Source: an uncultured virus (IMG/VR IMGVR_UViG_3300042154_002964) (taxonomy: Duplodnaviria; Heunggongvirae; Uroviricota; Caudoviricetes). Taken from it: a DNA stretch of 64,000 nucleotides. The position numbers were made by a program, and so were the translations under genes. This document shows positions 3,508-23,104 of the stretch, piece after piece. The number at the start of each line of letters is the position of its first letter. The first letter of the stretch is position 1. The notes beneath the pieces are model-generated. The model ran no database searches and was not told the origin of the DNA. It saw only the letters and a list, made by a program, of their open reading frames with translations. The stretch lies in the IMG/VR virus record IMGVR_UViG_3300042154_002964. One strand, given 5' to 3'.

Positions 3508-5235
3508 TTAAAATTTTATATTAACTCCGGGTAAATTTTTCTTCCAAATAGGGTTGATTGTTAATGTGAAAGTAATTTTAGGGTTAATATTGTAACTTAA
3601 TGTTTTGATTATTTGTTGAGTGTCACCTATTTGAACACCAAATAAATCTAATTTAAATGGAAACGTTGGTGTTGTTGTTGCTTTTAACACTTCACTCAAA
3701 TCTAAACTCTTACCCGTAGTCCTATTATAGTTATTAATTTCGTCTTTAAGGTAATCTAATGGTTTCTTTTCTGTAATTGGGGGAAGAACCTTCAGGAAGT
3801 TTAAAACCTCTTTATTCTCAGTCTTTTCCAATTGTTCTCGAATGACTTTTTTCATTCGGTTGGATTCAATCAATTTATAGTTGTGTAAGAAATCATTGAA
3901 GGTTTCCAATGTATATGATTGGTCCTCACTTGCACCCCAAGGGTCGGTGGTTTTGAACTTTCTAATAACTACGGTATCATCGTCAGTATCGACTCTAAGA
4001 ATTTTAAATGAATAACCTTCAGATGCCGGAATTGGATGATTTTTATTAATCCCAAACTTGGCAATAATTGTTTGATAAATCTGTAAAGTATCTTCCGAAT
4101 AATCTTCAGTTACCTGTGTAAAGATTTTATCTAATTCATATTTAACATCATTATCAAATGCGGTTTGATTAAAACCATTATATCCGTATTCATAAGAGTG
4201 TTCATAATAACCACTTGGGACTTTTATATTATAAAATGACTCTTTAAATAACTCCATTAAAGTTAAATCAGTACTTGATGCGTCATCATATAATTTAAGT
4301 AATAAATTAACCGATGTAACATACTTAGACATACAATCTACTTTTATGATATAGTATGGTAATAATATATTACAGAAATCATTTGTTATTTCATTTTTTG
4401 CCTCTTCATTTGCCGCACTATTTAGGTTTGATGCGTAGTCACTACATATACTACCAATCTCATTAGGGTATAAATCATACAATAATTTTGACACCTCTTG
4501 AGATTCATCATCATTTGAAAGGTCAAAATTAAGTAAATTAGGGTTAATGTATTTCAATATCTCTCTAATTTTATCAATATTTTCAGTACCAAAATAACGG
4601 ATTAAATAACCTTCACCCCAATCCTCTTCCGCTCGATAAGAGTCCATAAACTCATAACCATCATAATAACTGAATACCGCTTTAATAAACCATATATCGT
4701 CATCACTAATATCGTCAAACATTTTTAGAAATTCTTCTTCATCTTCAAATGTCAAAGTGATTAATGATTTACCCGGATTTCGTTCGGCAATCTTTATTTT
4801 ACTTATTATGTTATCTTCATCAATATCTGAAAAATCGTAATATCTTGGGAATTCAGTTACCTTCCCATTTTTAATATCTAATAATGATTGATAAACACGT
4901 CCGTGACCTTTAATCTCATTAATAATTGGAATAACACTATCTAATTTTTGACTTTTTAATTTGTCTATAAAATCTAAATAACCCTCATCGTCAAAATCAT
5001 CATTATAATATGTTAAATCACCATCTAAATCTCTGTACACATAATATCTTGCCCATACGGAATTTTTATCCACTATAATATAAAAATCACCGTCTCTAAA
5101 TCTTTGGACCCAATCTTTAACTAAAGACTCTTTAATATCGTCAGGTGCGTAGTATTCTATATCTGAAGCTTGTTGGACATCAACAACTATTACGTTGTCA
5201 TCCTCAAACACTATTTTACGTTCATTTTCCTCCAT
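3508..5235 (-). CDS. hypothetical acidic protein
   Basis: 575-aa ORF; internal KLIESNRMKKVIREQ module. Confidence 0.8.
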   Translation of the reverse strand: MEENERKIVFEDDNVIVVDVQQASDIEYYAPDDIKESLVKDWVQRFRDGDFYIIVDKNSVWARYYVYRDLDGDLTYYNDDFDDEGYLDFIDKLKSQKLDSVIPIINEIKGHGRVYQSLLDIKNGKVTEFPRYYDFSDIDEDNIISKIKIAERNPGKSLITLTFEDEEEFLKMFDDISDDDIWFIKAVFSYYDGYEFMDSYRAEEDWGEGYLIRYFGTENIDKIREILKYINPNLLNFDLSNDDESQEVSKLLYDLYPNEIGSICSDYASNLNSAANEEAKNEITNDFCNILLPYYIIKVDCMSKYVTSVNLLLKLYDDASSTDLTLMELFKESFYNIKVPSGYYEHSYEYGYNGFNQTAFDNDVKYELDKIFTQVTEDYSEDTLQIYQTIIAKFGINKNHPIPASEGYSFKILRVDTDDDTVVIRKFKTTDPWGASEDQSYTLETFNDFLHNYKLIESNRMKKVIREQLEKTENKEVLNFLKVLPPITEKKPLDYLKDEINNYNRTTGKSLDLSEVLKATTTPTFPFKLDLFGVQIGDTQQIIKTLSYNINPKITFTLTINPIWKKNLPGVNIKF

Positions 5236-5332: not shown

Positions 5333-5720
5333 GGGGATAACTTGGAATTGACTGGCATTGTTAATTATTCGGGGCACGCAGTGAGAAGATTCCTATCACT
5401 TAAATCTATGGTATCAAATTACAAACGGCAACGTTTTAAACAAAATGGCGACTATCGGATTAATCCGTGAAGACGCTGCAGTAGCTGCCTAAGCTTAGGA
5501 AGACACTAACGGGTCGATGGACATATAACCTAGGAACAGAAGTCTTTACAAAGGTGGAAAAATGACTGAACCCGAAATCGAGTCATTCATTGGTTGTTAG
5601 TTTACGATGATGAAGAACAAACTTACTATTTTTGGAACATTAGAAAATGTTATCCTAAGCGTGTAGTCCTTAGTCTTTAAGGTGTACAACACGAGGGTTC
5701 GACTCCCTCTATCTCCACCA
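5333..5720 (+). ncRNA. ssrA: tmRNA (388 nt)
   Basis: GGGGATA/TATCTCC-ACCA acceptor stem with G3:U70; GAATTGAC 5' motif; T-arm GAGGGTTCGACTCCCTC; tag ORF 5427-5492 GNVLNKMATIGLIREDAAVAA*. Confidence 0.95.
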
Positions 5721-5762: not shown

Positions 5763-6065
5763 TTATCTTCTTGTTCTTACTTTGAAAGGTCTTTTATGTT
5801 TGTCTTTATACGTATCAAATATTCTTTTACCACTTTCCCCTTTATCAAACCATCTAGTATCTTCCCCGTGTTTCGATTGTAAATCATCAAAGTCATCAAA
5901 TTCTTCATCATCGAATTCCATATCATCAAATCCTGATTTACTAAAAGAACTGTCCTTTTCGTCATACCATTCTTCATCATCAAAAGAACCGTATTTAGAT
6001 TCCTCAATTACTCTTTTAACTATACGTGTTAAATCCGCTTCAGTTAATCTTATAACTTTTTTCAT
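5763..6065 (-). CDS. hypothetical acidic protein with KKVIRLTEADL module
   Basis: 100-aa ORF; N-terminus nearly identical to that of 117..512; TATTTAT at 6082-6088. Confidence 0.8.
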   Translation of the reverse strand: MKKVIRLTEADLTRIVKRVIEESKYGSFDDEEWYDEKDSSFSKSGFDDMEFDDEEFDDFDDLQSKHGEDTRWFDKGESGKRIFDTYKDKHKRPFKVRTRR

Positions 6066-6514: not shown

Positions 6515-6587
6515 TAGCAACGGACGGGAATCGAACCTGTTTGGGTCGGCTTATGAGACCGATGAGATACCTTACCTCCCCCCTGCT
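6515..6587 (-). tRNA. tRNA-Met(CAU), imperfect stems
   Basis: Anticodon arm TCGGT-CTCATAA-GCCGA; GGTTCGATT T-loop; mismatches in acceptor and T stems. Confidence 0.6.
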
Positions 6588-6599
6588 ATATTTGGCTTT

Positions 6600-7490
6600 A
6601 AAAAAGGCTGAGATTATACCTGTTATTGAGAACCTTTGGAAGGATTATTGTTTCCCTTCGTATCCACTTTCTTTTGAAAAGTATTCCTCAGTGTCGGTTT
6701 TTTAGGTGAACCACTCCTTGAGACATCAACTACTCTCTCATTACTCAACTCTCTTCGAGAATGCCTCCCCGACTAATCCTTGCGAGATTAGAGGTTTTTG
6801 GTAAGAATACATTCAGACTTGCGGTCATCCTGTGCAATGAACAACTCATTACTATGTAGACACCTTTCGTTGATATCTGACGGACACTTTTGCTTTAGTT
6901 TAAATTTTAATTTTTACATTAACCTAGTAAAATAAAGTTTTTCGTGTTGTGGATTAATCAAAGTAGTGGTCCGTCTTTCAGATTCGTCGTCTTTTGAACA
7001 ACGAAATACCAAACTACTCTGTGAAGTATCCCTACCTCAATATTTTAAGATTACTTCGAAACAATTCTTTTGGTAAAGAATCATCAAGGAAAATTTCAGC
7101 ACCACCTGTTTGTTTTCATACCTTTCGGTTTTAAGCCACCTCTTATAATGGAAGTCGTAATTGTAACGTTGGATACGATACTTCTTACATAAATCCTACG
7201 AGTTATTCCTATTAGAGTTCCCTCCTCAATCTGATGACCCACATCACCAAATCATATAACCACTTTCTCTACATCGTTGACCTCGATACTAAAGGTTATA
7301 CGGTATCCCGCTTGTGTACTCGACCTCGGTTTCCCAAGACGCAGACCCGTTACACTTGGGGGTCCACTTTATCCTACTTTCGTAGTTTATTTAATGACCA
7401 TACACGGCCAATATCTTTATCAGTTTGTTACTCAAAATCAACCACAAGGGTCTCATCATCAAACATTCTGAACGGATAATCAAATTTCAA
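6600..7490 (-). ncRNA. large ornate ncRNA, GOLLD-like (~0.88 kb)
   Basis: No credible ORF; raised GC; many GNRA-capped hairpins (CTAATCTC-GCAA-GGATTAG, TCTTGG-GAAA-CCGAGG, ACC-GAAA-GGT); 3' ACTGAG...TAATCTCAG pairing; tandem promoters and boxA upstream; adjacent tRNA. Size and context fit GOLLD; family not verified by covariance search. Confidence 0.6.
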
Positions 7491-7761: not shown

Positions 7762-8415
7762 TTATTTTAATAAATTTTTAATTCTTGAGATTTCTTCGTT
7801 CAAATTATCCTCGGAATCGTTTTTTTTCTGTTTTAGTCTTTCGTCTTTTTCTTTATTATGTAATTGGAACATACCTTTACCAATTTTCTTTAATTCTTTA
7901 CCGGCAATATCCGCACCTTTTAAAAGTTGGTTTGCCGCAAATTCGATTGGTAAAGTGACAGGTGATAACGCATTAATTTCATAGTCTTTTGAATCACGAT
8001 ATCTTTTTGTTGGTTTTGTTTCTTTTTTGTCACTTACTTTAGATTTATCTTTAGATTCCTCATCTTTAAATAATTCACCATTTAAGAACTTCTTAGGATT
8101 GAGGTAATCTAAATTAGACGATAATACTGAATAAGTTATTGGTTCTTCAGAAAAAAAACCAATTGTTGACCCACCACGAACATTATCGCTAAGATGAGCA
8201 AGAGTGTTATTAACACCACAAAATTGAGAATAGAATTTAGAGCCCCCAATATTATGTTGAATTAATAAATAACCATCAGAACAACTATTATTATTAGTTT
8301 TAACCACAACACCATCATAGGGGGACATAACTTTGTCCATCCTATATGACTTCAACTCCGCACTTTTAGATTTAAAATCTATATCTCCGTGGGTTATTTT
8401 ATTTGATTTACTCAT
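7762..8415 (-). CDS. degenerate M23-peptidase-like protein
   Basis: V-x-SPYDGVV, YLLIQH, V-x-GG-x-x-IG and LNP motifs of the M23 fold; catalytic HxH absent. Confidence 0.5.
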   Translation of the reverse strand: MSKSNKITHGDIDFKSKSAELKSYRMDKVMSPYDGVVVKTNNNSCSDGYLLIQHNIGGSKFYSQFCGVNNTLAHLSDNVRGGSTIGFFSEEPITYSVLSSNLDYLNPKKFLNGELFKDEESKDKSKVSDKKETKPTKRYRDSKDYEINALSPVTLPIEFAANQLLKGADIAGKELKKIGKGMFQLHNKEKDERLKQKKNDSEDNLNEEISRIKNLLK

Positions 8416-9098
8416 TTCATTAATTTTTTAATTCTAGTAATTTCTTCAGTAATTGTTTGAACATTTTCAAGTGACTCATCATTTTCTTTAAACCCTAATA
8501 AATTTAACATTGATTTAAATATTGGGTTACCCATTGGCTTAGTATCACTAGTTTCATCACCGTTAGTTTCATCCCCTTTAGTTTCGGTGTCAGTTGTGGT
8601 TTCTGAATCAGAGTCTGTTTTATCATTTTCAGGTGTCATTGGTTTACCTGAACCTAATTTTTTTGCACTTTCAACGTGTTCCCAATGCCAAGGTTCGGTC
8701 CTTGGATTACTAAATGGGTTTGAGAAACCAAATTTCGATGCGTTGTCAGTTAACCATTTATGGGCTTTATCACCATATTTAACGACTAAATCAAGAGCAG
8801 CACCCCATCCGTGATTTGAAGTACCAGGATATGCGACAGGTGTTCCTGCGGTCCCTTTCTTTCTTCTTTTCTTGGTTTTCTTATAATAATCCCAATCAAA
8901 TATTTTGTCTTGGATTTCAAATGGTCGATATGAATCAGTGATTGACCAAGTGACACCATCTTCTTTAGCGGCTTTAACCATTTTATCGTAGGCCGCCGCG
9001 GCTTCGGGATTTAATTTATGATTACTATTTGAAGAGAGAGGTGTCAGATTGGTTAACTTACCATTAGTTTCTTCAAAAATCAATTTTTGATTTTTCAT
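8412..9098 (-). CDS. M15B D-Ala-D-Ala carboxypeptidase (VanY-like)
   Basis: DSYR...Q, PGTSNHGWGAALD, EPWHWE motifs. Confidence 0.85.
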   Translation of the reverse strand: MKNQKLIFEETNGKLTNLTPLSSNSNHKLNPEAAAAYDKMVKAAKEDGVTWSITDSYRPFEIQDKIFDWDYYKKTKKRRKKGTAGTPVAYPGTSNHGWGAALDLVVKYGDKAHKWLTDNASKFGFSNPFSNPRTEPWHWEHVESAKKLGSGKPMTPENDKTDSDSETTTDTETKGDETNGDETSDTKPMGNPIFKSMLNLLGFKENDESLENVQTITEEITRIKKLMK

Positions 9099-9832: not shown

Positions 9833-10888
9833 TTATAACTTTTTGAACTCAGGTCTTATTAGTCTCCATATAGTTTCGTCGTAATCTTTTTTATCCCACA
9901 TTTGAAACATCACACCTCTAAGTCCTTCTTTTATGTTTTTCATAACAAACTCTGCGTATTCTTTCTTAGTTGGTTCAGGGTCAACATCACCATATTTCCC
10001 GTATCTAAACCCATCGTGCATTTTACCACAATATTCAGATATTGAATAGTGAGCGTATCTCAAATCTTTAACGTAAGATTTTATTTTAGAATAGAATTCA
10101 TCAGGAACTTCTTTCATCATTTCTAAAACATCATCACCATTTCTCAAACATTCCCATATACCGGTAGTAGATACGTTAGTCATTATTTTATGTAGACGTA
10201 AGTATTCCACACCTTTAACTTTCATTCTATCACCATTTGAGAATAACACTATAAACCCTTCAGCGTCGTCTCTAACCATTTGTTTTAACACAGAATAGTC
10301 AGATATACCATCGTAACGTTTAACAACTTTTAAACCGATATTTCGTATAAGATTTTGTATTCTCATATCTAAATCCCCGTGTAAGTTTACTTCATATCCG
10401 TGTTTAGTGTTTGTCGAGCCAAGTAAAACAACATCTTCAAAATCATATGAACAAACTATTCTGTTTTCAGCATATATTATTTCAAATAAGTAAGTGAAGT
10501 CTTTATGTAATTTGTTGTAATCATAATTAGATAACATTTCCATACCTTTCACCGCTTGGTCGGAAGTAAATGAACCACGAGTTGCCATAACCCATTCCCC
10601 TTCGTAGTGGAATAATATCCCCAATGAACCATCCATTTTCTCATAGACTTTGAAATCATCAGTTGGGGTGTGTTTACCTTCCTCCATATTGAAGAATTTT
10701 CTAAATGGTCTTGCAACTATATTACCGTTGTCGTCAGTTACTAAACCACGACACATCAAAGTCACCTCATCCCATAAGTTCTCAAACTGAACTTTCTCAG
10801 TGTAATTCCATATGGTTAATGGTAAAGTTGGATGTACTTGTTTGTACAATAACCCATCATTGTAATATTTTTCTAAAGTTGCTTTCAT
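9833..10888 (-). CDS. T4 Rnl1-family RNA ligase
   Basis: CRGLV...RPFRKFFN, EKMDGSLG (motif I), FEII, EGF, RMKVK. Confidence 0.9.
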   Translation of the reverse strand: MKATLEKYYNDGLLYKQVHPTLPLTIWNYTEKVQFENLWDEVTLMCRGLVTDDNGNIVARPFRKFFNMEEGKHTPTDDFKVYEKMDGSLGILFHYEGEWVMATRGSFTSDQAVKGMEMLSNYDYNKLHKDFTYLFEIIYAENRIVCSYDFEDVVLLGSTNTKHGYEVNLHGDLDMRIQNLIRNIGLKVVKRYDGISDYSVLKQMVRDDAEGFIVLFSNGDRMKVKGVEYLRLHKIMTNVSTTGIWECLRNGDDVLEMMKEVPDEFYSKIKSYVKDLRYAHYSISEYCGKMHDGFRYGKYGDVDPEPTKKEYAEFVMKNIKEGLRGVMFQMWDKKDYDETIWRLIRPEFKKL

Positions 10889-10900
10889 ACAACAAATATA

Positions 10901-11842
10901 CTAAATTCTTTTAATAATCGTACCGTCTGAATAGTGAAAAAATTTCATTCCAGGTGAATCTACCGTAACGTCTTGACCTAATGTGTTTGTTATCTTAATT
11001 AATTCGGGGGTGAATTTACGATTATCAATTGATATGATATTAAAATCTTTTGATTTACCATCATAATCGGTTTGCGTTAAATAATAATATGAAATATCAT
11101 TAAAATAACCCCTCTCTAAGTATTGGTAAAAATGCGTAAATGATGAGGTTCCGACACCATCAACTTTTGCGACTTCCACCCAATTAATTGGGTAATATGT
11201 TTTAAAAATTGTGAAGAATTGATTATTAGTTTCTGTGGCAGTCGCCCATTCAAGTAAATTACCATCCTCAGTTTGTTTACCCTTGAAGTATAATAATTCA
11301 ATAGGTAAACCTACAGGTTCAGATTCAAAGATTGATAAGTCATCTAAATATGCTGATGTTGGACCACCATAGATTGTGTTAGTCCATATTTGAAAATAAC
11401 CCGACCCTGCGTATGTGGATAATATAGTAAACGACCATTGATACCAAGTATTCCAATTTGAATTACAACTTGAGTTAGTTTGATTATCAGTTGTTAATAA
11501 TGTTGTTTGATTTGGTAACTCATTAGTGTTTACAACTACCGAACAAACACGTTTTGTGTAAAAGGTTATTGTGTAATTATAATTCGCTTTAAAAGTAATA
11601 GGAATATAAATATAAATTGAATTACCATTTGCCGCGGATGAAAATCTTGAGGAATACTTCGTCGCGTCAAAAACATTACGATAATTTCCTGTGGCACTTT
11701 CATTCCTGTTAAAGACCCAAACATTTGAAGTTGATGACCATCCTGATGGTGATACACTTGAGAAGTGTTGGTCAACAAGATAAGTCTGTCCATAAGTGAA
11801 TATAGACAGACTTAACATTAAGATATTAATTAAAGTTTTCAT
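10901..11842 (-). CDS. secreted Bacteroidota-type protein with carbohydrate-binding-like domain and T9SS-like C-terminus
   Basis: Signal peptide; LPIELLYFKG...LEWATATETNN...YYYLTQTDYDG module typical of Bacteroidota secreted proteins; C-terminal NTLGQ...YSDG. Confidence 0.65.
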   Translation of the reverse strand: MKTLINILMLSLSIFTYGQTYLVDQHFSSVSPSGWSSTSNVWVFNRNESATGNYRNVFDATKYSSRFSSAANGNSIYIYIPITFKANYNYTITFYTKRVCSVVVNTNELPNQTTLLTTDNQTNSSCNSNWNTWYQWSFTILSTYAGSGYFQIWTNTIYGGPTSAYLDDLSIFESEPVGLPIELLYFKGKQTEDGNLLEWATATETNNQFFTIFKTYYPINWVEVAKVDGVGTSSFTHFYQYLERGYFNDISYYYLTQTDYDGKSKDFNIISIDNRKFTPELIKITNTLGQDVTVDSPGMKFFHYSDGTIIKRI

Positions 11843-12873
11843 TTCTCATTTAATAAGAATTTATTAGAGATTGCTTTGAAACTGATTTTTCTGTCGTGTG
11901 AACGAATAACTAGCCCCTCTCTTTCGGTTTTAATATTTAAAACAGACTTACCTTCAGCCATTAACAATAATTCATCAATTGTTTCAGGTAATGTAAAATC
12001 TAAGTCGAGAATTGGAACCGTTTTCACTTCCAAAATTTTAGTCAATTCAAGCAAATCATCTAACGATAAATAGTCGTACTTGTCAATATCAAATCCGTTG
12101 AATATTCTAACTGTTTGACCAATACGTTGGTAAGGATTTCCTTGAATTCCTTCACCGATGATTTCACCTTGTACCGCAAGGTTTTTCTCCAATCCAACCA
12201 ACTTATCACGTAATCCTGATTCGATTGCGAATTTCCACATAGAATTGTTCACATCCTCCAATAAATCCAAGTTTCTTGAACACACTCCAAATACCCCGTC
12301 TTTAACGTAGTAAGTTACACTAGAACCATCTAATTTCTCAGTTACGTAGAATTTCGCCAATTTGTAGATAGGGTATTCTTTTGTCAAGTTTTGAACTCTT
12401 TCTTCATCAGTTTTCTTTAAAAATGAAGGAAAATTACCTTTAACTTGTCCTGCCAATTGTGCGGGAATTGGTGGTTCGTATTTCACAATGTTTAACATTT
12501 CTGTTACGTCAAGACCTTCAAACCAACCCATATCCATATTCGGTGTGTTTCTTTTGAAAACATCGTAAGCCTCTTTAAGGGGTAAGATTAACCCTTGAGA
12601 GATTTGACCTCGTAATCTGATTGTTTTCAAACGGAAACCTTCATTACCGTCCGCCATTTTTTTGTATGAACTCTTACGTAAAAATTCAAACTCAGGTTCA
12701 ATAGGTAAAAATGAGTCAACCTCACAGTAAACAATTAAGTCACCTACTTTATGATTTACATCTTTAGCAACAACAACTTTCCATCCGTCAATTGTTGCCA
12801 ATTCAATTTTGTCAGCCCCTTCGATTGGACTTAAATCAGAAATTTGTCTAATACTCGCTAATTTTCTTTCCAT
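11839..12873 (-). CDS. RNA ligase, DRB0094/Rnl5 family
   Basis: N-terminal OB domain (RKLASI...IEGADKIE...SQGL), TEKLDGSS, QGE, REGLV, SFKAISNKFL. Confidence 0.9.
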   Translation of the reverse strand: MERKLASIRQISDLSPIEGADKIELATIDGWKVVVAKDVNHKVGDLIVYCEVDSFLPIEPEFEFLRKSSYKKMADGNEGFRLKTIRLRGQISQGLILPLKEAYDVFKRNTPNMDMGWFEGLDVTEMLNIVKYEPPIPAQLAGQVKGNFPSFLKKTDEERVQNLTKEYPIYKLAKFYVTEKLDGSSVTYYVKDGVFGVCSRNLDLLEDVNNSMWKFAIESGLRDKLVGLEKNLAVQGEIIGEGIQGNPYQRIGQTVRIFNGFDIDKYDYLSLDDLLELTKILEVKTVPILDLDFTLPETIDELLLMAEGKSVLNIKTEREGLVIRSHDRKISFKAISNKFLLNEK

Positions 12874-16018: not shown

Positions 16019-16019
16019 G

Positions 16020-16094
16020 TGGAGACAGTGGGAATCGAACCCACCACACGGTGATTGCAAATCATCATCGCCACGCCTTGGAACATTTGCCCCC
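16020..16094 (-). tRNA. tRNA-Ala(UGC)
   Basis: Acceptor GGGGGCA/TGTCTCC with G3:U70; A73; loop TTTGCAA. Confidence 0.8.
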
Positions 16095-17009: not shown

Positions 17010-17038
17010 AACTGACTGTTATACTGTTTATTTTATTG

Positions 17039-17111
17039 AGCGGGTGGGGGGAATCGAACCCTCGTCCTTAGATTGGAAGTCTAATATAATAAGCCACTAT
17101 ACGACACCCGC
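17039..17111 (-). tRNA. tRNA-Gly(UCC)
   Basis: TTAGA-CTTCCAA-TCTAA; GCGGGTG acceptor; U73. Confidence 0.92.
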
Positions 17112-17197
17112 AATTTGGGTAGAATCAGACGCGTTCTGTCTACCGAGACCTCGACGTTGTACTATGTTTCAAGTCAGAGCGTACCGAGACACTATTG

Positions 17198-17277
17198 TGA
17201 ACCTGGAGGGAGTCGAACCCTCAATCCTAAAAATCGCGGCTTAAACACGACGCGTATACCAATTTCGCCACAGGTCC
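17198..17277 (-). tRNA. tRNA-Leu(UAA)
   Basis: TCGTG-TTTAAGC-CGCGA; Leu-type D arm. Confidence 0.85.
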
Positions 17278-17283
17278 TTTTTG

Positions 17284-17356
17284 TACCCCTACAGGGATTC
17301 TAACCCCGATTAAACCCTTAGAAGGGGTTGGTCCTATACAGTTGAACGATAGGGGC
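17284..17356 (-). tRNA. tRNA-Arg(UCU), non-canonical T- and D-loops
   Basis: AACCC-CTTCTAA-GGGTT; T-loop TTAGAAT; D-loop lacks GG. Confidence 0.7.
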
Positions 17357-17365
17357 GAATTATTG

Positions 17366-17437
17366 CGGACTATGTAGGATTCGAACCTACGACCTATCCG
17401 TTAACAGCGGAGTGCTCTACCACTGAGCTAATAGTCC
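17366..17437 (-). tRNA. tRNA-Asn(GUU)
   Basis: Loop CTGTTAA; canonical D and T arms. Confidence 0.92.
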
Positions 17438-17449
17438 ATTTAATTGTTG

Positions 17450-17522
17450 AGGTCCCTAACGGATTCGAACCGTTATCCCTGGGTTACAAAGCCAGAATAA
17501 TAAGCCATTATACTAAGAGACC
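17450..17522 (-). tRNA. tRNA-Thr(UGU)
   Basis: CTGGC-TTTGTAA-CCCAG. Confidence 0.85.
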
Positions 17523-17664
17523 AATTAAGAGTGTTATTAATTCGTTTTACCTAAGACCGCGAATCCACGTAAAACTCAACTTCACCAATATTTTTACTGC
17601 AGTTCCAATATTGTCACATTGCTACTATATTGAACTAATAACTACGAATTACCCATCATAATTT

Positions 17665-17740
17665 CACCATCGTTAGGGCTCGAACCTAAAGCTTCCGACT
17701 CCACGTCAGATGTGTTGACCAATTTACACCACTAGTTACT
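17665..17740 (-). pseudogene. tRNA-like element (Pro UGG-like, G33, broken acceptor stem)
   Basis: D arm, TCTGA-CGTGGAG-TCGGA and TTAGGTTCGAGCCCTAA present; acceptor strands do not pair. Confidence 0.55.
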
Positions 17741-17769
17741 TAGATTGACAAATAATTGTTTTTCTCTTT

Positions 17770-17845
17770 GCTGAATAATAAGGGTTCGAACCTTAATCTG
17801 AAATCCGTATTACCATCATCCGTGCTCCATTACACTATATCCAAT
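17770..17845 (-). pseudogene. tRNA-like element with unpaired anticodon stem
   Basis: TAGTGTAATGGAGCAC D arm and TAAGGTTCGAACCCTTA T arm. Confidence 0.5.
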
Positions 17846-17893
17846 CGACAGTTTCGAACCTGTCATATAAAGGGTTATAACTCCTTTATTTTG

Positions 17894-17965
17894 CGGTCTA
17901 TGCGAGAATCGAACTCGCGGCACATCCGTGACAGGGATGTATGTTAGCCACTACACCAATAGACC
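17894..17965 (-). tRNA. tRNA-Asp(GUC)
   Basis: CATCC-CTGTCAC-GGATG; G73. Confidence 0.92.
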
Positions 17966-17971
17966 ATAATA

Positions 17972-18154
17972 AAAACAAGTTTTTCGTGACCTTTACACAT
18001 CATAACCAATTTTACTCGGTGATTACATTTTCGTCATTGGGGTAGCTAATCCCCGACTTATAGTAATTCTACCCTCAATACTTTACTATCGCGAATCAAG
18101 TACCATCTTGGGATTTATAGACAGTGAGGGTTTACTCACCGTCTTCACTTGTTT
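17972..18154 (-). ncRNA. candidate structured RNA (~180 nt)
   Basis: Closed by AAACAAGT/ACTTGTTT; internal AGACGGTGAG/CTCACTGTCT and GGGG/CCCC hairpins. Confidence 0.4.
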
Positions 18155-18156
18155 AG

Positions 18157-18228
18157 TAGCGGGTACAGGATTCGAACCTGTGTCTTTGGGTTATGAGCCC
18201 AACGGGGTGACCACTCCCCCAACCCGCG
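18157..18228 (-). tRNA. initiator tRNA-fMet(CAU)
   Basis: GGG-CTCATAA-CCC anticodon stem; C1:U72 mismatch. Confidence 0.9.
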
Positions 18229-18233
18229 ATATG

Positions 18234-18310
18234 AATTACCCATAGGACTCGAACCTACAACCCTTCGCCCTTTTGAGCGATGTGCAAACCAATTTACACC
18301 ATAAGTAATT
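18234..18310 (-). pseudogene. tRNA-like element with non-canonical anticodon loop
   Basis: D and T arms intact; TCGCT-CAAAAG-GGCGA 6-nt loop without U33. Confidence 0.55.
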
Positions 18311-18405
18311 AATCAAGAACAATAAACAGAAATTAGTGTCGACAAATTTCCTTAGGCAATATGTTTATTTTCTTGTTAGGGTTCGGTTAATTACTCCGAC
18401 CTTTG

Positions 18406-18479
18406 TATCGCGTACGGGATTCGAACCCGTGATTTTCACCTTGAAAGGGTGACGACTTAAACCTCTCGTCTAACGCGAC
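18406..18479 (-). tRNA. tRNA-Glu(UUC)
   Basis: TCACC-CTTTCAA-GGTGA. Confidence 0.9.
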
Positions 18480-18491
18480 ATTTTGTTTTTT

Positions 18492-18570
18492 CTATTCCGA
18501 TATGTCAAAGACCTTTTGTTTTCTTTTGTCTTACAAATCTAATCATTTTCTTTTGTTCTCACAAGCTCTT
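18492..18570 (-). promoter_or_regulatory. promoter (TAGATTTG) plus boxA-like cassette
   Basis: TAGATTTGTAAGACAAAA...GTCTTTGACATATCGG; near-duplicate of 18832-18905. Confidence 0.65.
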
Positions 18571-18589
18571 TGTGATATTTTTTTTTCTG

Positions 18590-18663
18590 TAGTTCAGAAG
18601 GGATTTGAACCCCCAACCTTGACGATATAAGCGTCCTGCTCTCACCTGTTGAGCTACTGAACC
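18590..18663 (-). tRNA. tRNA-Ile(UAU)
   Basis: GGACG-CTTATAT-CGTCA; A73. Confidence 0.85.
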
Positions 18664-18667
18664 AAAT

Positions 18668-18747
18668 ACGTTTCACGTTTTAGGCCAATTAAACTAACCG
18701 CCCGTCGTCACGGACAGTACCGGAGTCGAACCGATATGTGATAACGA
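18668..18747 (-). ncRNA. circularly permuted tRNA mimic (YrlA/Y-RNA-like topology)
   Basis: 5'->3' order: T arm ATCGGTTCGACTCCGGT, acceptor-like stem closed by a GACG loop, D arm GTTTAATTGGCCTAAAAC; termini pair (CGTTATCAC/GTGAAACG). Confidence 0.65.
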
Positions 18748-18749
18748 AG

Positions 18750-18823
18750 TACCCTTGGTGGGATTCGAACCCACAAAAAAATAGTTTCTAAAACTATCGT
18801 GTATACCTTTCCACCACAAGGGT
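18750..18823 (-). tRNA. tRNA-Leu(UAG), short variable region
   Basis: ATAGT-TTTAGAA-ACTAT. Confidence 0.8.
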
Positions 18824-18831
18824 ATCTACTT

Positions 18832-18905
18832 CTATTCCAATATGTCAATGAACTCTTGTTCTGTTTTGTCTTACAAATCTAATACTTTTATTTTGATTTG
18901 CCAAA
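18832..18905 (-). promoter_or_regulatory. promoter (TAGATTTG) plus boxA-like cassette
   Basis: TTTG...TAGATTTGTAAGACAAAA...GTTCATTGACATATTGG. Confidence 0.65.
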
Positions 18906-18915
18906 CTTAGGTCAC

Positions 18916-18947
18916 AAAAAAAACCCCTCTCTTTTGGAGAAGGGTTT
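18916..18947 (-). terminator. putative attenuator terminator 1
   Basis: AAACCCTTCTC-CAAAA-GAGAGGGGTTT followed by a U tract. Confidence 0.8.
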
Positions 18948-18970
18948 CATTTAAATTTTATCTTAATGAA

Positions 18971-19048
18971 TTAACACATCTTCTCCGATACACAAGGATT
19001 GTCTCCCTCCGTTCTCGCATTTAAAAGTATGTTATTCAAATTTTGCAT
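18971..19048 (-). CDS. putative leader peptide 1 (25 aa) of the tRNA sub-array 16020-18823
   Basis: MQNLNNILLNARTEGDNPCVSEKMC*; contains GGAGAAG complementary to the terminator 5' arm. Confidence 0.75.
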   Translation of the reverse strand: MQNLNNILLNARTEGDNPCVSEKMC

Positions 19049-19133
19049 TGTGTTGTCTTTTTTATTAAATATATTGTACTTTTTGAAAAGTTCAATAGTT
19101 AGTGAAAAATTTTTAACAAATTGGTTTAGATTT

Positions 19134-19532
19134 TTAATTTTCAAGTACTTCTTTAACAATTTTTGAAACTAAAGTATTGTCGGCTTTACCCTTATATACT
19201 TTATTGAAAGCACCCATCATTTTACCAACATTATCAATACCATCTTTTTTAAATGTTCTGATGATTGAACGGATACTAAATTCATCCATTAACTTTGGTA
19301 AATATGGTTTAATGTATTCTAATTCTTTTAAAGATTCATCAGTGTTTGTCTGTGTTAATGATTTTTCCATTTTCTTTAAAATAGAAAGAACTACCTCATC
19401 TGTCACACTAACACCTCTACCTTCTTCATTTTGGATTTCACCTTTTAGTACACCTAAAAAGTTTTTCTTTTCCATTTCTTTGTTTTTAAATGCCGTCATA
19501 AATTCGACATTAATTTGTTCTCTTAGTGACAT
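19134..19532 (-). CDS. GatB/YqeY-domain protein
   Basis: MSLREQI...AFKNK...LKGEIQNEE...YLPK...GKMMG...KGKAD...VSKIVK. Confidence 0.85.
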   Translation of the reverse strand: MSLREQINVEFMTAFKNKEMEKKNFLGVLKGEIQNEEGRGVSVTDEVVLSILKKMEKSLTQTNTDESLKELEYIKPYLPKLMDEFSIRSIIRTFKKDGIDNVGKMMGAFNKVYKGKADNTLVSKIVKEVLEN

Positions 19533-19549
19533 AGTTATTTGTTTTTAAG

Positions 19550-19630
19550 TGGGTGCGGAGGGATTCGAACCCCCACGCGATTAAGACCTGAGCTACAATC
19601 AGGCGAGCCAGCCAATTGCTCAACACACCC
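19550..19630 (-). tRNA. tRNA-Tyr(GUA), atypical
   Basis: CCTGA-TTGTAGC-TCAGG; long variable region. Confidence 0.75.
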
Positions 19631-19705
19631 ATAAAGAAAATATCGTAGATTGTCCTTCACAATTTAACGGCGGGTTTGAACTTAATCAACTCTCCTACGA
19701 TATCT

Positions 19706-19791
<86 letters not shown>

Positions 19792-19817
19792 ATTATATGA
19801 CAATTAATGTCATTTCG

Positions 19818-19889
19818 CGCACCACCAAGGACTCGAACCCTGACCAAATGGGTTGGAACCATTTATGCTAGCCATTACACCAATGATGC
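19818..19889 (-). tRNA. tRNA-Trp(CCA)
   Basis: AATGG-TTCCAAC-CCATT; G73. Confidence 0.85.
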
Positions 19890-19916
19890 GAATAATGAAA
19901 TTTTTATATTTCATTG

Positions 19917-19990
19917 AGGACAGAGAGAGGTTCGAACTCCCGAATAATGGGTTTGCAGCCCACCCCTTTAGACCACTCAGGCATCTGTCC
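19917..19990 (-). tRNA. tRNA-Cys(GCA)
   Basis: GTGGG-CTGCAAA-CCCAT; U73. Confidence 0.92.
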
Positions 19991-20186
19991 AATTTAATAT
20001 TAAGTCGCGAGTAATCCATCTGTCGCTTATTACTAGAATCTTGTGGCTTACTTACTATAGTTCATACCGTTACCACTAGGAAACCCAACTTAATATCTTC
20101 GTACTAATTATTTTAGAGATTGGTTCCCGAAGGATTAAACCATCACTTGTACTTCGTGTCAGGAGGTAAACCCCATATCTCTAATG

Positions 20187-20258
20187 TAGCCCCTGTAGGA
20201 CTCGAACCTACACTATCTTGTATGTAAAACAAGTACTTCACCTTTAAGCTAAAGGGCT
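20187..20258 (-). tRNA. tRNA-Val(UAC)
   Basis: CTTGT-TTTACAT-ACAAG. Confidence 0.9.
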
Positions 20259-20266
20259 AATTATTG

Positions 20267-20341
20267 TGACCCCGGTGAGAATCGAACTCACGACCCGTAC
20301 ATTAAAAGTGTACTGCTCTAAACCAACTGAGCTACGAAGTC
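20267..20341 (-). tRNA. tRNA-Lys(UUU)
   Basis: GTACA-CTTTTAA-TGTAC. Confidence 0.92.
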
Positions 20342-20464
20342 AAATTTGGAAGGTCACCACAAACACCTTCCACGGTGAGTATTTTAATGTCGTTTTGTCT
20401 AATTACACCTAAGTGTCATAGTCGCAGGTCTCACTTCACGACAAACCCGATTGGTATTAAGTAG

Positions 20465-20538
20465 TCGGTACGGTAGGATTTGAACCTACGACCTTTCACG
20501 TATCAGGCGAATGCTCTTACCAGCTGAGCTACGTACCG
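20465..20538 (-). tRNA. tRNA-Ile(GAU)
   Basis: TTCGC-CTGATAC-GTGAA. Confidence 0.9.
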
Positions 20539-20545
20539 TTATTTT

Positions 20546-20620
20546 TGGTCGGGGTAGCAGGTGTCGAACCTGCCGCCTCTTGGTCCCAAACCAAGCGTCT
20601 CACCCCAAGACTATACCCCG
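20546..20620 (-). tRNA. tRNA-Pro(UGG) with encoded CCA
   Basis: CTTGG-TTTGGGA-CCAAG; CGGGGTA acceptor. Confidence 0.9.
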
Positions 20621-20686
20621 TTTGTTTGTTTAACAAAGATAAGTAATCATTTTCATTCTCACAATACCTTAGTTAATTTTTTTTTG

Positions 20687-20758
20687 TATCGTTATCAGGA
20701 CTCGAACCTGAACCCACACCTTATGAGAGTGTTGTGACTACCTTTACACTATAACGAC
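20687..20758 (-). tRNA. tRNA-Met(CAU) elongator (or Ile2)
   Basis: ACACT-CTCATAA-GGTGT. Confidence 0.8.
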
Positions 20759-20763
20759 GTTTG

Positions 20764-20851
20764 CGGAAGATGTAGGGTTCGAACCTACGCGTCATATTTC
20801 AGACCTACTTGTTTAGCAAACAAGCCTCTTTACCAATTTGAGTAATCTTCC
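20764..20851 (-). tRNA. tRNA-Ser(GCU)
   Basis: CTTGT-TTGCTAA-ACAAG; long variable arm; G73. Confidence 0.9.
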
Positions 20852-20891
20852 AAAATACACCGACCTAGCTCGGTATCACACATCGGATACG

Positions 20892-20963
20892 TAGTCCCCC
20901 AAGGACTCGAACCTTGACATTATCGTCCGTAGCGATAGGTGCTATCCGTTACACCAAGGAACC
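20892..20963 (-). tRNA. tRNA-Arg(ACG)
   Basis: TATCG-CTACGGA-CGATA. Confidence 0.9.
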
Positions 20964-20966
20964 AAA

Positions 20967-21077
20967 TAATAAGGTTGGAGACTTATAATCGACCATTATA
21001 AGGTTGGAGCCTTATAATCACCCATTATTAGGTCTGAACCTAATATTCACCCATTATTAGGTTATAACCTTATATTG
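20967..21077. repeat. four degenerate 29-nt tandem hairpin repeats
   Basis: Units start at 20967, 20996, 21025 and 21054; consensus TTATwAGG-6 nt-CCTwATAwTCACCCA. Confidence 0.8.
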
Positions 21078-21254
21078 AGTTTTTCTGTAGTGTTTCCAAG
21101 TTTTATACATTCTAACTTGATAACTCATTTTGTTTCCGTAGAAACTTATTCCTTCATCCCAATAAATTGGGTAAAAGTCATTAATCAATCTATTTCGGTA
21201 TTCTCTACCATTTTGTGCTTTGTTCAGTTTTGCTCTGTTGATGTTTGTACTCAT
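21057..21254 (-). CDS. small basic hypothetical protein
   Basis: MSTNINRAKLNKA...KTWKHYRKTQYK. Confidence 0.65.
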   Translation of the reverse strand: MSTNINRAKLNKAQNGREYRNRLINDFYPIYWDEGISFYGNKMSYQVRMYKTWKHYRKTQYKVIT

Positions 21255-21510
21255 AGTTGTGGTTTTTAACCTACAACTTGTCAAATTTTTTCTTCATTTT
21301 GTTTAATGTAATCTAATGCAATGTGTATCAAACCGTTGAGATATTGCCATTTCGGACTTGCGTTCGGATAATGACCGAATATCTCAACTAATTTTTCTTC
21401 TTGCCATTTCCTTTCACTAATGATTGGAGATAACCATCGACCATTTTCTAAGTCGGCATTTACAAATGTTTTTTCTGTCTCTGCGATTTCTAAGTTTTAA
21501 AAATTAATTG

Positions 21511-21585
21511 GGAGTATAGTGAGATTCGAACTCACCCTATTAGCACCACAAACTAACGTGCTCGACCACTGACACTATATACTCC
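21511..21585 (-). tRNA. tRNA-His(GUG)
   Basis: TTAGT-TTGTGGT-GCTAA; G-1:C73 pair. Confidence 0.9.
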
Positions 21586-21663
21586 ATAAAAACCCCACTT
21601 CATCGGATTAATGGACCGACTGCCATATCGGGAGTGGGGGTTTTCCCATCAGTAGGGACTCCG

Positions 21664-21736
21664 TGGGACAGGAGGGAATCGAACCCCCATTGCTTGTTCT
21701 TCAGACAAGTGCCTTGACCAACTTGGCAACTGACCC
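21664..21736 (-). tRNA. tRNA-Phe(GAA)
   Basis: CTTGT-CTGAAGA-ACAAG. Confidence 0.88.
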
Positions 21737-21842
21737 AAATATTTTCATCAAATCACCGATTACCACAATTACGGTGAGACCTTCGGGAACTGCCGTCCCG
21801 TGTTTTCTTTTTACCCGTGGATTAAACTATTTGATGGGGTAG

Positions 21843-21917
21843 TTGTCCCGGCAGGAATCGAACCTGCGATATCCACATTCAAAGTGTGGTGGCTCTGCCA
21901 ACGTCGCCTACAGGACA
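21843..21917 (-). tRNA. tRNA-Gln(UUG)
   Basis: CCACA-CTTTGAA-TGTGG; U1:A72. Confidence 0.85.
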
Positions 21918-21924
21918 ATAATGG

Positions 21925-22050
21925 TTACTTACGTAACCTTTTGATTAATTTTCTCAACAACCTAAATTTTATTTTAACCTCTTTAGGTTGTTGTCTTAAC
22001 ATTACTCTACTTGACTCAAATGTTCCCGTCAATACTTCTCTTTTTTTCAT
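21925..22050 (-). CDS. small basic hypothetical protein (41 aa)
   Basis: Manual translation MKKREVLTGTFESSRVMLRQQPKEVKIKFRLLRKLIKRLRK*. Confidence 0.5.
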   Translation of the reverse strand: MKKREVLTGTFESSRVMLRQQPKEVKIKFRLLRKLIKRLRK

Positions 22051-22065
22051 TTTACTTTTATTTTG

Positions 22066-22148
22066 CGGAAGACGAGGGAATCGAACCCCCAAAGCTTTTA
22101 CACCCAGCCGCTTTCAAGGCGGTGTCCTCGTCCATTCGGGCGCCTTCC
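22066..22148 (-). tRNA. tRNA-Ser(UGA)
   Basis: ACCGC-CTTGAAA-GCGGC; long variable arm; G73. Confidence 0.85.
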
Positions 22149-22163
22149 GTATTATTATCTAAA

Positions 22164-22225
22164 CCAATATGTCAATGAACTTTTCTGTTGTCAAAGATAC
22201 AAATTTCATTTTGTAACTTCCAAAT
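22164..22225 (-). promoter_or_regulatory. promoter (TATCTTTG) plus boxA-like cassette
   Basis: TTTG...TATCTTTGACAACAG...GTTCATTGACATATTGG. Confidence 0.65.
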
Positions 22226-22233
22226 TTTATTTC

Positions 22234-22267
22234 AAAAAAAAACCCCCGAACTTTTGGTTCAGGGGTC
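22234..22267 (-). terminator. putative attenuator terminator 2
   Basis: GACCCCTGAAC-CAAAA-GTTCGGGGGTT followed by a U tract. Confidence 0.8.
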
Positions 22268-22292
22268 TTACTAAATTAATATACGTTTATAT

Positions 22293-22412
22293 TTAACTTA
22301 ATATGTTTTCTGAACCATATGACGTGCTAAACCACATCGGATACGATACGCTACACACGCGAATCTGTTTCGATGGACTTACTTGTTTAATATGTTGTTC
22401 AGTTGTTCTCAT
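22293..22412 (-). CDS. putative leader peptide 2 (39 aa) of the tRNA sub-array 19550-22148
   Basis: Manual translation MRTTEQHIKQVSPSKQIRVCSVSYPMWFSTSYGSENILS*; contains GGTTCAG complementary to the terminator 5' arm. Confidence 0.75.
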   Translation of the reverse strand: MRTTEQHIKQVSPSKQIRVCSVSYPMWFSTSYGSENILS

Positions 22413-22477
22413 TTTTATTATTCTTTTAATATATATCAACAAATTTAGTAAAAGTTCTTTGGTTGTCAAGTTTTTTT

Positions 22478-23050
22478 TTAATTTTTTCTACATTTTTCAC
22501 AAAATGTGATTGTGTTCACATCATTACTTCTGTTTTCAGACATAACACAATTTGAGTTATCACAATGACTCAAACCTAAATTGTGTCCTATCTCGTGAAT
22601 TATGACACGTTTTAATTCATTTGGTCGGTTCTTACCAACAATTATGATATTACCATAAAGTTCACCTAATCCACCAATCGTATTTTTATCTTCTACTGAA
22701 TAACACCCATCATCAGTTAATAAAATTTTATTTTGGTTATTGTCAAAATCCTCTAAAGATTTCTCACAATCAATTAACCCATTGATGTAATAATCAGAAC
22801 TCAATTGAATTGGGTCAATTATTTTAGTTGGAACACCATAAGTCTCTTCAACAATTTGTTTAGCGTGACGTAAAGTACTATTTGAATAATTACCAAGACC
22901 TTGAATATAGATTGTATCACCATCTGTCATTTTTTTCAAATCAATTGAATTTGTGATAAATGTTGGTAATGGGATTTTACCTGATTTAACTTTAGAAGTT
23001 AAAGTAACCATAACCAAAACTATAACACCAAATTTTATTATCTCTTTCAT
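22478..23050 (-). CDS. archaemetzincin (M54)-like zinc metalloprotease, membrane-anchored or secreted
   Basis: HEIGHNLGLSHC...CVM...FCEKC; N-terminal hydrophobic segment. Confidence 0.8.
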   Translation of the reverse strand: MKEIIKFGVIVLVMVTLTSKVKSGKIPLPTFITNSIDLKKMTDGDTIYIQGLGNYSNSTLRHAKQIVEETYGVPTKIIDPIQLSSDYYINGLIDCEKSLEDFDNNQNKILLTDDGCYSVEDKNTIGGLGELYGNIIIVGKNRPNELKRVIIHEIGHNLGLSHCDNSNCVMSENRSNDVNTITFCEKCRKN

Positions 23051-23104
23051 ATCCGTTTCTTTTTATCAAAGATATAAAAAATACTTAATAATCAAGCAAG
23101 GTTA

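Follow-up and report, generated by a model that had tools for sequence, protein, structure and literature searches.

Introduction

The closest described relatives of the locus considered here are the multivalent amino-acid attenuators: the leader of the thr operon carries Thr and Ile codons, and that of ilvGMEDA carries Ile, Val, and Leu codons. The element analysed here, a small reading frame and terminator upstream of a phage tRNA block (hereafter leader 2), is like them in having a short leader (predicted to be translated), several kinds of regulatory codon, and an intrinsic terminator with a competing antiterminator, between which ribosome position would decide. The differences lie in what is regulated and what is sensed. 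The thr and ilvGMEDA leaders regulate biosynthetic enzymes, while leader 2 is phage-borne and precedes tRNA genes; it would poll 13 amino acids by way of 14 tRNA species (in related phages, all 20 amino acids); its products could relieve a signal of tRNA supply, rather than one of amino-acid supply; and, unlike those leaders, it has a promoter-like box after its terminator. The trp and his attenuators (trpL, hisL) share with it a four-segment layout (predicted here) and a terminator more stable than the antiterminator, but their regulatory codons specify one amino acid and lie inside region 1, whereas leader 2 has a run of 24 codons between regions 1 and 2.

Three other systems are similar in part. 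The attenuator of pheST (the pheM leader) also acts on a translation-apparatus gene through the decoding of cognate codons, but there the product is a synthetase, the amino acid a single one, and the genome cellular, as opposed to a phage tRNA block. T-box riboswitches are terminator/antiterminator switches that read tRNA status for translation-related genes, but bind uncharged tRNA directly and need no ORF, and leader 2 has no T-box match (see below); we know of no T-box riboswitch that controls tRNA genes. In the ermC and cat stalling leaders, as proposed here, a tiny ORF reports the state of translation and switches an RNA structure, but it is a drug-bound ribosome that stalls, at a specific peptide, and mostly translation that is regulated, whereas leader 2 would take a census of a codon set. 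Since the genes downstream of leader 2 are 15 tRNA genes, rather than genes for biosynthesis or aminoacylation, it would be a variant of the attenuator family, not a classical member.

How phage tRNA genes are regulated, and what they are for, is debated, with codon compensation and escape from tRNA-cutting defences as the contenders. In full-text searches of a largely open-access literature we found no account of leader-peptide or attenuator control of tRNA genes; passages of one article on phage tRNAs (PMC10264068) describe none.

Results and Discussion

The window and its tRNA blocks

The stretch analysed (the window) is 64 kb of AT-rich, phage-like DNA from a lake phage, with 32% G+C. ARAGORN finds 25 tRNA genes in it; a GOLLD RNA and a tmRNA are also present, along with genes for two RNA ligases, a Lon-like protease, an HNH endonuclease, and a thymidylate synthase. 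Two tRNA blocks, A and B, lie on the minus strand with a YqeY-like gene (19134-19532) between them. Block B (19549..22148) has 15 genes of 14 species, for 13 amino acids. Default ARAGORN finds 14 of these, over 19549-21917; the first gene of the block, tRNA-Ser(UGA) at 22063..22148 (minus strand), is missed by both default ARAGORN and the Rfam tRNA model, but appears once the ARAGORN threshold is relaxed, and shares 76-80% identity with Ser(UGA) genes at other viral loci. With this gene included, the tRNA types listed for the block in a preliminary description of the sequence are correct. Block A (17038..18823, minus strand) encodes tRNAs for Leu, Ile-UAU, Glu, Met, Asp, Thr, Asn, Arg-UCU, Leu, and Gly.

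Several further elements were seen in the same region. A tRNA-Ala(UGC) gene at about 16019-16094 (minus strand), downstream of block A and separated from it by two small protein genes, escapes both default ARAGORN and the Rfam tRNA model (in Rfam it gives a weak tmRNA-like match only), and is 96% identical to the Ala gene of a related viral contig, L165. Three tRNA-like elements within block A (17771-17843, 17665-17736, and 18235-18308, all minus strand) have Rfam tRNA scores of 23-25 bits against a threshold of 29; relaxed ARAGORN names them Arg-ACG, Pro-UGG, and Leu-CAA, and they may be decayed or unusual tRNAs. The phage tmRNA is near the full-length GOLLD RNA (316 bits), which adjoins a tRNA-Met (sites 5333-5720, plus strand; 6605-7021 and 6516-6589, minus strand), and the two RNA ligase genes, phrog_562 and phrog_968, are close to the arrays (9833-10888 and 11839-12873, minus strand). 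With its ligases, tmRNA, and YqeY-like gene, the region looks like a translation-maintenance or tRNA-repair island.

The leader 2 reading frame and its match to block B

The leader 2 unit, a leader ORF followed by a spacer and a terminator, spans 22234..22412 on the minus strand. The ORF (22293..22412) has 39 codons and a stop (22295-22293), and in translation of the minus strand gives the peptide MRTTEQHIKQVSPSKQIRVCSVSYPMWFSTSYGSENILS. It lacks a Shine-Dalgarno sequence, which counts against its translation, and Pfam has no family for it, for the corresponding leader of block A (leader 1), or for a related 46-residue leader.

The preliminary description had called attention to codons 6-29 (22326..22397) as a run read entirely by the tRNAs of block B, touching every type and free of Ala, Asp, Glu, Gly, Leu, Asn, and Thr. 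Translation gives the residues as they were listed there, with those seven amino acids absent, and under strict wobble the 14 anticodons of block B read 27 codons (set B), to which all 24 codons of the run belong and in which all 14 species are represented. It is the longest set-B run in the six frames of the window (22397-22326, 24 codons; the next has 15), although set B makes up 46% of six-frame triplets; when the window was block-shuffled, a run of 24 appeared anywhere in 1 of 200 shuffles. Under the codon usage of the phage genes, 24 in-set codons in succession have a probability of 1.75e-9 per position, and 24 random in-set codons covered all 14 species in 549 of 200000 draws. Over the whole ORF the strict codon match is 28/38, against 0.43 expected from phage gene usage, and synonymous choices fit block B in 26/28 cases (21.1 expected). 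The in-set fraction of the whole ORF (0.79) is a weak statistic, because 15 of 251 control small ORFs of the window equal or exceed it; run length and species coverage carry the signal. The match is also uneven along the frame: 26/29 residues are in set over codons 4-32, versus 3/7 from codon 33. The codon-matched leader is thus a real feature of this locus, far above chance.

Leader 1, upstream of block A, mirrors leader 2 with a complementary codon set. Its unit (18920..19048, minus strand) consists of a 25-codon ORF (19048..18971; peptide MQNLNNILLNARTEGDNPCVSEKMC) and a terminator (18948..18920), after which block A begins. Codons 3-17 specify Asn, Leu, Ile (ATA), Ala, Arg (AGA), Thr, Glu, Gly, and Asp, which apart from Ala are amino acids served by block A; a single codon (CTT) requires four-way reading by Leu-UAG. 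The two leaders also differ in isoacceptor choice, each in agreement with its own block: Arg is CGC and Ile is ATT in leader 2 (block B has Arg-ACG and Ile-GAU), and Arg is AGA and Ile is ATA in leader 1 (block A has Arg-UCU and Ile-UAU). In leader 1, GGAGAAG (codons 21-23) is complementary to CUUCUCC in the 5′ arm of the terminator; this complement was also examined in the relatives L198 and L165.

Promoter-like sites, predicted folds, and the terminator

A promoter-like site, P1, lies upstream at 22440..22469 (minus strand; TTGACA, 16 nt, TAAATT, the second box being TAAATTTG) and is conserved in L198 and L165. The ATG at 22412 is the first start codon after it, a layout seen alike in about 50 leaders at other loci. 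The gene directly upstream (22481-23050, minus strand) codes for a small zinc metallopeptidase (Peptidase_M54 / M10 motifs), and there is no terminator between it and P1.

Four segments can be recognised in the predicted leader RNA (all minus strand). Region 1 (CUGAAC..CAUAU, codons 4-8, 22390..22402) is predicted to pair in untranslated RNA with region 2, the antiterminator strand (AUAUGGUUCAG, codons 32-35, 22310..22320). A spacer hairpin (22269..22303) takes in the last codons, the stop codon, and 3′ untranslated sequence. The intrinsic terminator (22234..22267; GACCCCUGAAC, a loop, and GUUCGGGGGU, with nine U after) follows, between the leader ORF and the tRNA genes, its stem at 22267-22241 succeeded by nine T in the DNA. 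For the complete leader RNA, the predicted fold has an energy of -50.3 kcal/mol (z -4.85) and consists of a helix of codons 4-8 with codons 32-35, the hairpin 22303-22269, and the terminator. When the 3′ arm of the terminator is left out, UGGUUCAG (22317-22310, codons 33-35) pairs with CUGAACCA (22262-22255) in 8 bp around the spacer hairpin. The antiterminator that the preliminary description placed at 22310-22316, opposite 22256-22262, is therefore present (GGTTCAG is the reverse complement of CTGAACC), and folding lengthens it to 8 bp. At leader 2 alone this pairing is weak, with a dG of -7.1 kcal/mol and a z of -1.65; in L198, where the arms are identical, p is 0.07. The in-set run stops at codon 29, three codons ahead of the antiterminator strand.

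The predicted pairings 1:2, 2:3, and 3:4 thus match the four-segment plan of a classical attenuator. No covariation supports the 1:2 helix; in an RNAalifold analysis of 29 related leaders (see below) the terminator was recovered with covariation, while the 1:2 helix was not conserved and had no equivalent in the alignment. Behind a ribosome that stalls near the end of the run this helix could form again, favouring termination; that late stalls would still favour the antiterminator because following ribosomes queue over region 1 is speculation on our part. A terminating ribosome cannot reach far enough to cover the terminator, whose stem begins 27 nt after the stop codon.

Also conserved, and overlooked in the preliminary description, is a second promoter-like box, which lies after the terminator and ahead of the first tRNA. 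This site, P2 (22192..22224, minus strand), consists of TTTG at 22224-22221 and TATCTTTG at 22199-22192; in two relatives the second box reads TACCTTTG and TAACTTTG, so that TAnnTTTG is kept and the two middle letters vary. A P2-type cassette also precedes block A and recurs inside it, and there are further promoter-like sites within the tRNA arrays. We take TAnnTTTG to be the -7 box of Bacteroidota promoters, which would fit the Cellulophaga example described below. It is not enriched across the window (119 found, 101 expected; 9 of 100 shuffles reach 119), and the reading as a Bacteroidota-type promoter therefore rests on its placement and conservation. Because P2 is conserved before the tRNAs, leader 2 is unlikely to be the sole gate of block B. 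To judge from the sequence, the tRNAs are probably also made without read-through, with the leader adding an inducible share and control being partial.

A 17-nt motif, GTTCATTGACATATTGG, is found at 22164..22180 (minus strand), with an exact copy before block A (18836-18852), in each case about 15 nt ahead of the first tRNA; a copy with three mismatches is at 18497-18512 (minus strand). It occurs at no fewer than 123 IMG/VR loci, mostly shortly before a tRNA and often between tRNAs 1 and 2 of an array, but is absent from Cellulophaga phage phi17:2. A promoter role for the 17-mer was considered and dropped: the spacing from its hexamer to any -10 box is inconsistent (not sigma-70), and the motif also occurs between tRNAs. 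Near block A it belongs to a 66-nt repeat (18490-18555 vs. 18830-18895, 86% identical), in which a promoter-like box and the 17-mer have been copied as a cassette into block A; the copy at 18490-18555 sits between tRNA-Ile(UAU) and tRNA-Glu.

Rfam searches over leader 2 gave nothing at the gathering threshold, and no T-box even at E values up to 1. The sub-threshold matches were to two enterobacterial leaders, rnk_leader (RF01771; 28.2 bits, threshold 50) and Rev39 5′UTR (RF02744; 23.6 bits, threshold 88); both rest on the terminator hairpin and were rejected.

Conservation in two close relatives

Two viral contigs, L198 and L165, have both leaders. The stretch from P1 to the T run is 95-96% identical to the window in these, and the leader 2 ORF 97-98%, compared with 100% for the tRNA-Gln gene, about 60% for the upstream metallopeptidase gene, and 37-85% for the spacers between tRNAs. 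Three substitutions fall in the ORF (Pro to Gln, a silent change in Val, and Ser to Ile), and none of them introduces an amino acid from outside block B. Most of the remaining changes are in the spacer hairpin and keep its pairing (two compensatory pairs and two one-sided G-U changes). As a point against the match, default ARAGORN finds no Met tRNA in block B of the relatives (and in L165 no Cys tRNA either), yet they retain the corresponding ATG (in L165 also TGT) codon in the leader.

Leader and block units in other viral loci

IMG/VR loci were gathered by exact match to the 17-mer, with 10-kb flanks, and searched automatically for small ORFs ending no more than 90 nt from an intrinsic terminator that is itself no more than 250 nt from a same-strand tRNA. 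This gave 67 hits with 50 distinct leaders. About 29 of the leaders are one family, of 46-50 amino acids, found before arrays in which Ser-UGA is first; in most of them 19 or 20 different amino acids are represented, and the complete arrays cover 19-20. Automatic clustering at 45% identity merged unrelated short peptides, and independent units were therefore picked by locus. The 13 chosen are not close relatives of each other and have blocks covering 2-16 amino acids (leaders 1 and 2 of the window, L131b, L146, L199a, L199b, L191, L192, L129a, L141, L155, L164, and L172). The 29-member family, L182, L170, and L144/L174 were left out as uninformative, their blocks covering 19-20 amino acids; also left out were L198 and L165, which are related to the window, an ORF located within a tRNA of L129, and the first of two tandem L131 leaders. 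The L131 locus has two tandem leader and terminator units (4583-4893 in the oriented copy), with similar peptides, before one block for Phe, Lys, Trp, Ser, and His.

With a block defined as the same-strand tRNAs after the terminator, up to a 1500-nt gap or the next leader (a rule set after the maps were viewed), the 13 leaders have 318 in-set residues where 226.1 are expected (z 9.4), and at the codon level 276/469 in set where 177.6 are expected (z 9.7). Swapping blocks among the leaders never reached the observed match (0 of 100000 permutations). For 10 of the 13 leaders their own block ranks first; three (L146, L155, and L164) show no enrichment. All amino acids of the block are present in the leader in every one of the 13 units, compared to 55/156 mismatched pairs. 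Leaders of different lineages resemble their own blocks in composition and are not alike in sequence. A BLAST search of 50,697 phage records with the region and with a related leader returned tRNA matches only and no homologous leader.

The structural parts recur as well. In most units the 3′ part of the ORF contains a complement to the terminator 5′ arm, and across the 13 units in-set residues concentrate upstream of it (258/343 vs. 46/100; Fisher p 8.5e-8). The complement is far stronger than in shuffled ORFs (z -3.6 to -5.9) in L192, L131, L172, L155, L180, L190, L201, L139, and L160, and no better than in shuffles in 4 of the 29 related leaders (L186, L137, L127, and L175). Across these 29 it co-varies with the type of terminator, e.g., GATTTGGG with CCCAAATC. 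A promoter-like stretch is present after the terminator in this main family too; in L182, L164, L129, L170, L155, L199, and L172, the T run is just 1-23 nt from the first tRNA.

The arrangement is also found in a cultured phage, Cellulophaga phage phi17:2 (NC_021798.1, locus L205 of our set), where three leader and terminator units partition the amino acids as the three tRNA blocks do. An ORF at 5837-5905 contains an 11-residue run of only Gln, Arg, Leu, His, Glu, and Pro; after it come a terminator (5931-5958) and tRNAs for Pro, Glu, Gln, His, Leu, Leu, and Arg. The second leader is gp077 (6761-6880), annotated as a hypothetical protein, with 28/38 residues in the set of the block that follows it (Ala, Lys, Ile, Gly, Met, Asp, Thr, Val, and Arg). 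In the third, the ORF (8356-8454) includes ten consecutive residues drawn from Tyr, Asn, Ser, Trp, and Phe, and is followed by a terminator (8473-8504) and tRNAs for Tyr, Ser, Asn, Trp, and Phe. The fit of each leader to either of the other blocks is poorer, at 1-13 in-set residues, and in units one and three the complement of the terminator 5′ arm comes two or three codons after the run. Further downstream is another hypothetical protein, gp078 (8702-8803), a small CDS distinct from the third leader.

Metatranscriptome contigs

Assembled contigs of four metatranscriptome runs, whose libraries may contain DNA, were compared to positions 18600-23100. A 175-nt contig from run X16 spans exactly 22234-22408, with one end just within the ORF and the other at the final T of the terminator. 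The leader 1 terminator is bridged by two contigs from two studies (X19, 18828-18994; X16, 18731-19070). As contigs cannot show true RNA ends, these three give no more than a weak hint that both terminated and read-through RNA forms exist. No contig in the four runs covers 22526-22978, which we do not count as evidence.

A proposed mechanism and its alternatives

The preliminary description had read the unit as a transcription attenuator. This reading is supported by the order of its parts (promoter-like site, first ATG, matched run, antiterminator strand, and terminator) and by the comparative evidence; what it did not take into account is P2. With these parts, their conservation, the match of codons to tRNAs, and its recurrence elsewhere observed, we consider it probable that leader 2 is a ribosome-mediated attenuator before a phage tRNA block, sensing decoding by the very tRNAs that it controls. 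That the leader is translated, in which direction the switch works, and what depletes the tRNAs are points that we infer.

In such a mechanism, transcription would start from P1, and the 39-codon leader would be translated at once. When a tRNA of a block-B type is scarce, cut, or uncharged, the ribosome would be slow within codons 6-29, leaving region 2 (codons 32-35) free to pair with the emerging 5′ arm of the terminator, with help from the spacer hairpin. The terminator would then be unable to form, and RNA polymerase would continue into the tRNA genes. With fast decoding, the ribosome would reach the stop codon (22295-22293), where it would melt the spacer hairpin and cover part of region 2, allowing the terminator to form; after its release, region 2 would pair with region 1. 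The outcome would be a negative feedback specific to the products of the block, with leader 1, by its complementary codons, serving block A in the same way.

One argument against giving the leader this role is P2. Block B could be driven mainly by P2 and the internal promoters, with leader and terminator a relic or a minor input, and the conservation of the TAnnTTTG box (22199-22192) and its upstream TTTG in L198 and L165 while the free letters vary, the repetition of the cassette before and within block A, and the promoter-like stretch after the terminator in the main family all suit such an arrangement. A relic would not, however, be expected to be 95-98% conserved, as the tRNA genes are and far above its flanks, or to show compensatory changes in its spacer hairpin; in other lineages the terminator abuts the first tRNA and leaves no room for a promoter; and P2 is itself unproven, TAnnTTTG being unenriched in the window. 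We regard this explanation as unlikely. Somewhat more unlikely, in our view, is that the ORF is translated and senses decoding but acts by something other than hairpin competition, or with the sign of the switch reversed: stalling might lead to cleavage or tmRNA action, or to Rho loading, or the terminated leader RNA of about 200 nt might be a trans-acting small RNA. The discrete contig matching the terminated leader, the phage's own tmRNA and nearby RNA ligases, and the weakness of the antiterminator at leader 2 are in keeping with this. Competition between hairpins is nevertheless favoured by the terminator-arm complement, which recurs in the ORFs of unrelated units and co-varies with the terminator, by the matched codons ending just before that complement, and by the position of the stop codon, since a ribosome terminating there, 27 nt before the stem, would not extend over the terminator.

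Two further explanations do without sensing altogether. The ORF might encode a small protein with a function of its own, the terminator merely ending its gene and the likeness to the tRNA set having another cause. Its conservation in two relatives, and the conserved family of 46-50-residue peptides in related phages, could be read in this way, but there is no Pfam match, lineages share composition with their own blocks rather than sequence with each other, and the two or three leaders of a phage partition the amino acids as their blocks do, making this very unlikely. Still less can be said for a chance frame in an AT-rich spacer that happens to avoid seven amino acids. Set B does make up 46% of six-frame triplets, and 15 of 251 control ORFs are as high in overall fraction; against this, the run of 24 is unique in the window and reached in 1 of 200 shuffles, coverage of all 14 species has a frequency of 0.3%, the run sits exactly between the promoter and the terminator of the block, and the pattern is found in 13 independent units with 0 of 100000 permutations matching it. 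Chance is strongly disfavoured, to the point that we give it almost no weight.

Implications

An attenuator at leader 2, read together with the other units, would belong to a more general scheme: phage tRNA arrays run by self-referential, codon-indexed feedback sensors, each block having a leader that polls just the tRNA species of that block. The tRNA set would be switched on when host tRNAs for these codons fail, and off once the phage's own tRNAs restore decoding. We put this forward tentatively, as a possibility somewhat short of an even chance. A pan-amino-acid leader lineage, as found before the Ser-UGA-first arrays of related phages, appears in the window to have split into two leaders with complementary codon sets when the array split, and such a parallel split would show leader content co-evolving with array content.

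Since the layout is present in a cultured pair, phi17:2 and Cellulophaga baltica, the idea can be tested at the bench. If it is true, phage tRNA arrays are demand-driven, and host tRNA depletion is testably linked to phage tRNA expression: failure of host tRNAs for the polled codons, for example by anticodon nuclease attack, would switch the tRNA set on. The principle of attenuation, classically tied to the supply of amino acids, would then also cover that of tRNAs, a single leader polling as many as 20 amino acids, and these leaders would be natural modular sensors of codon-specific translation speed.
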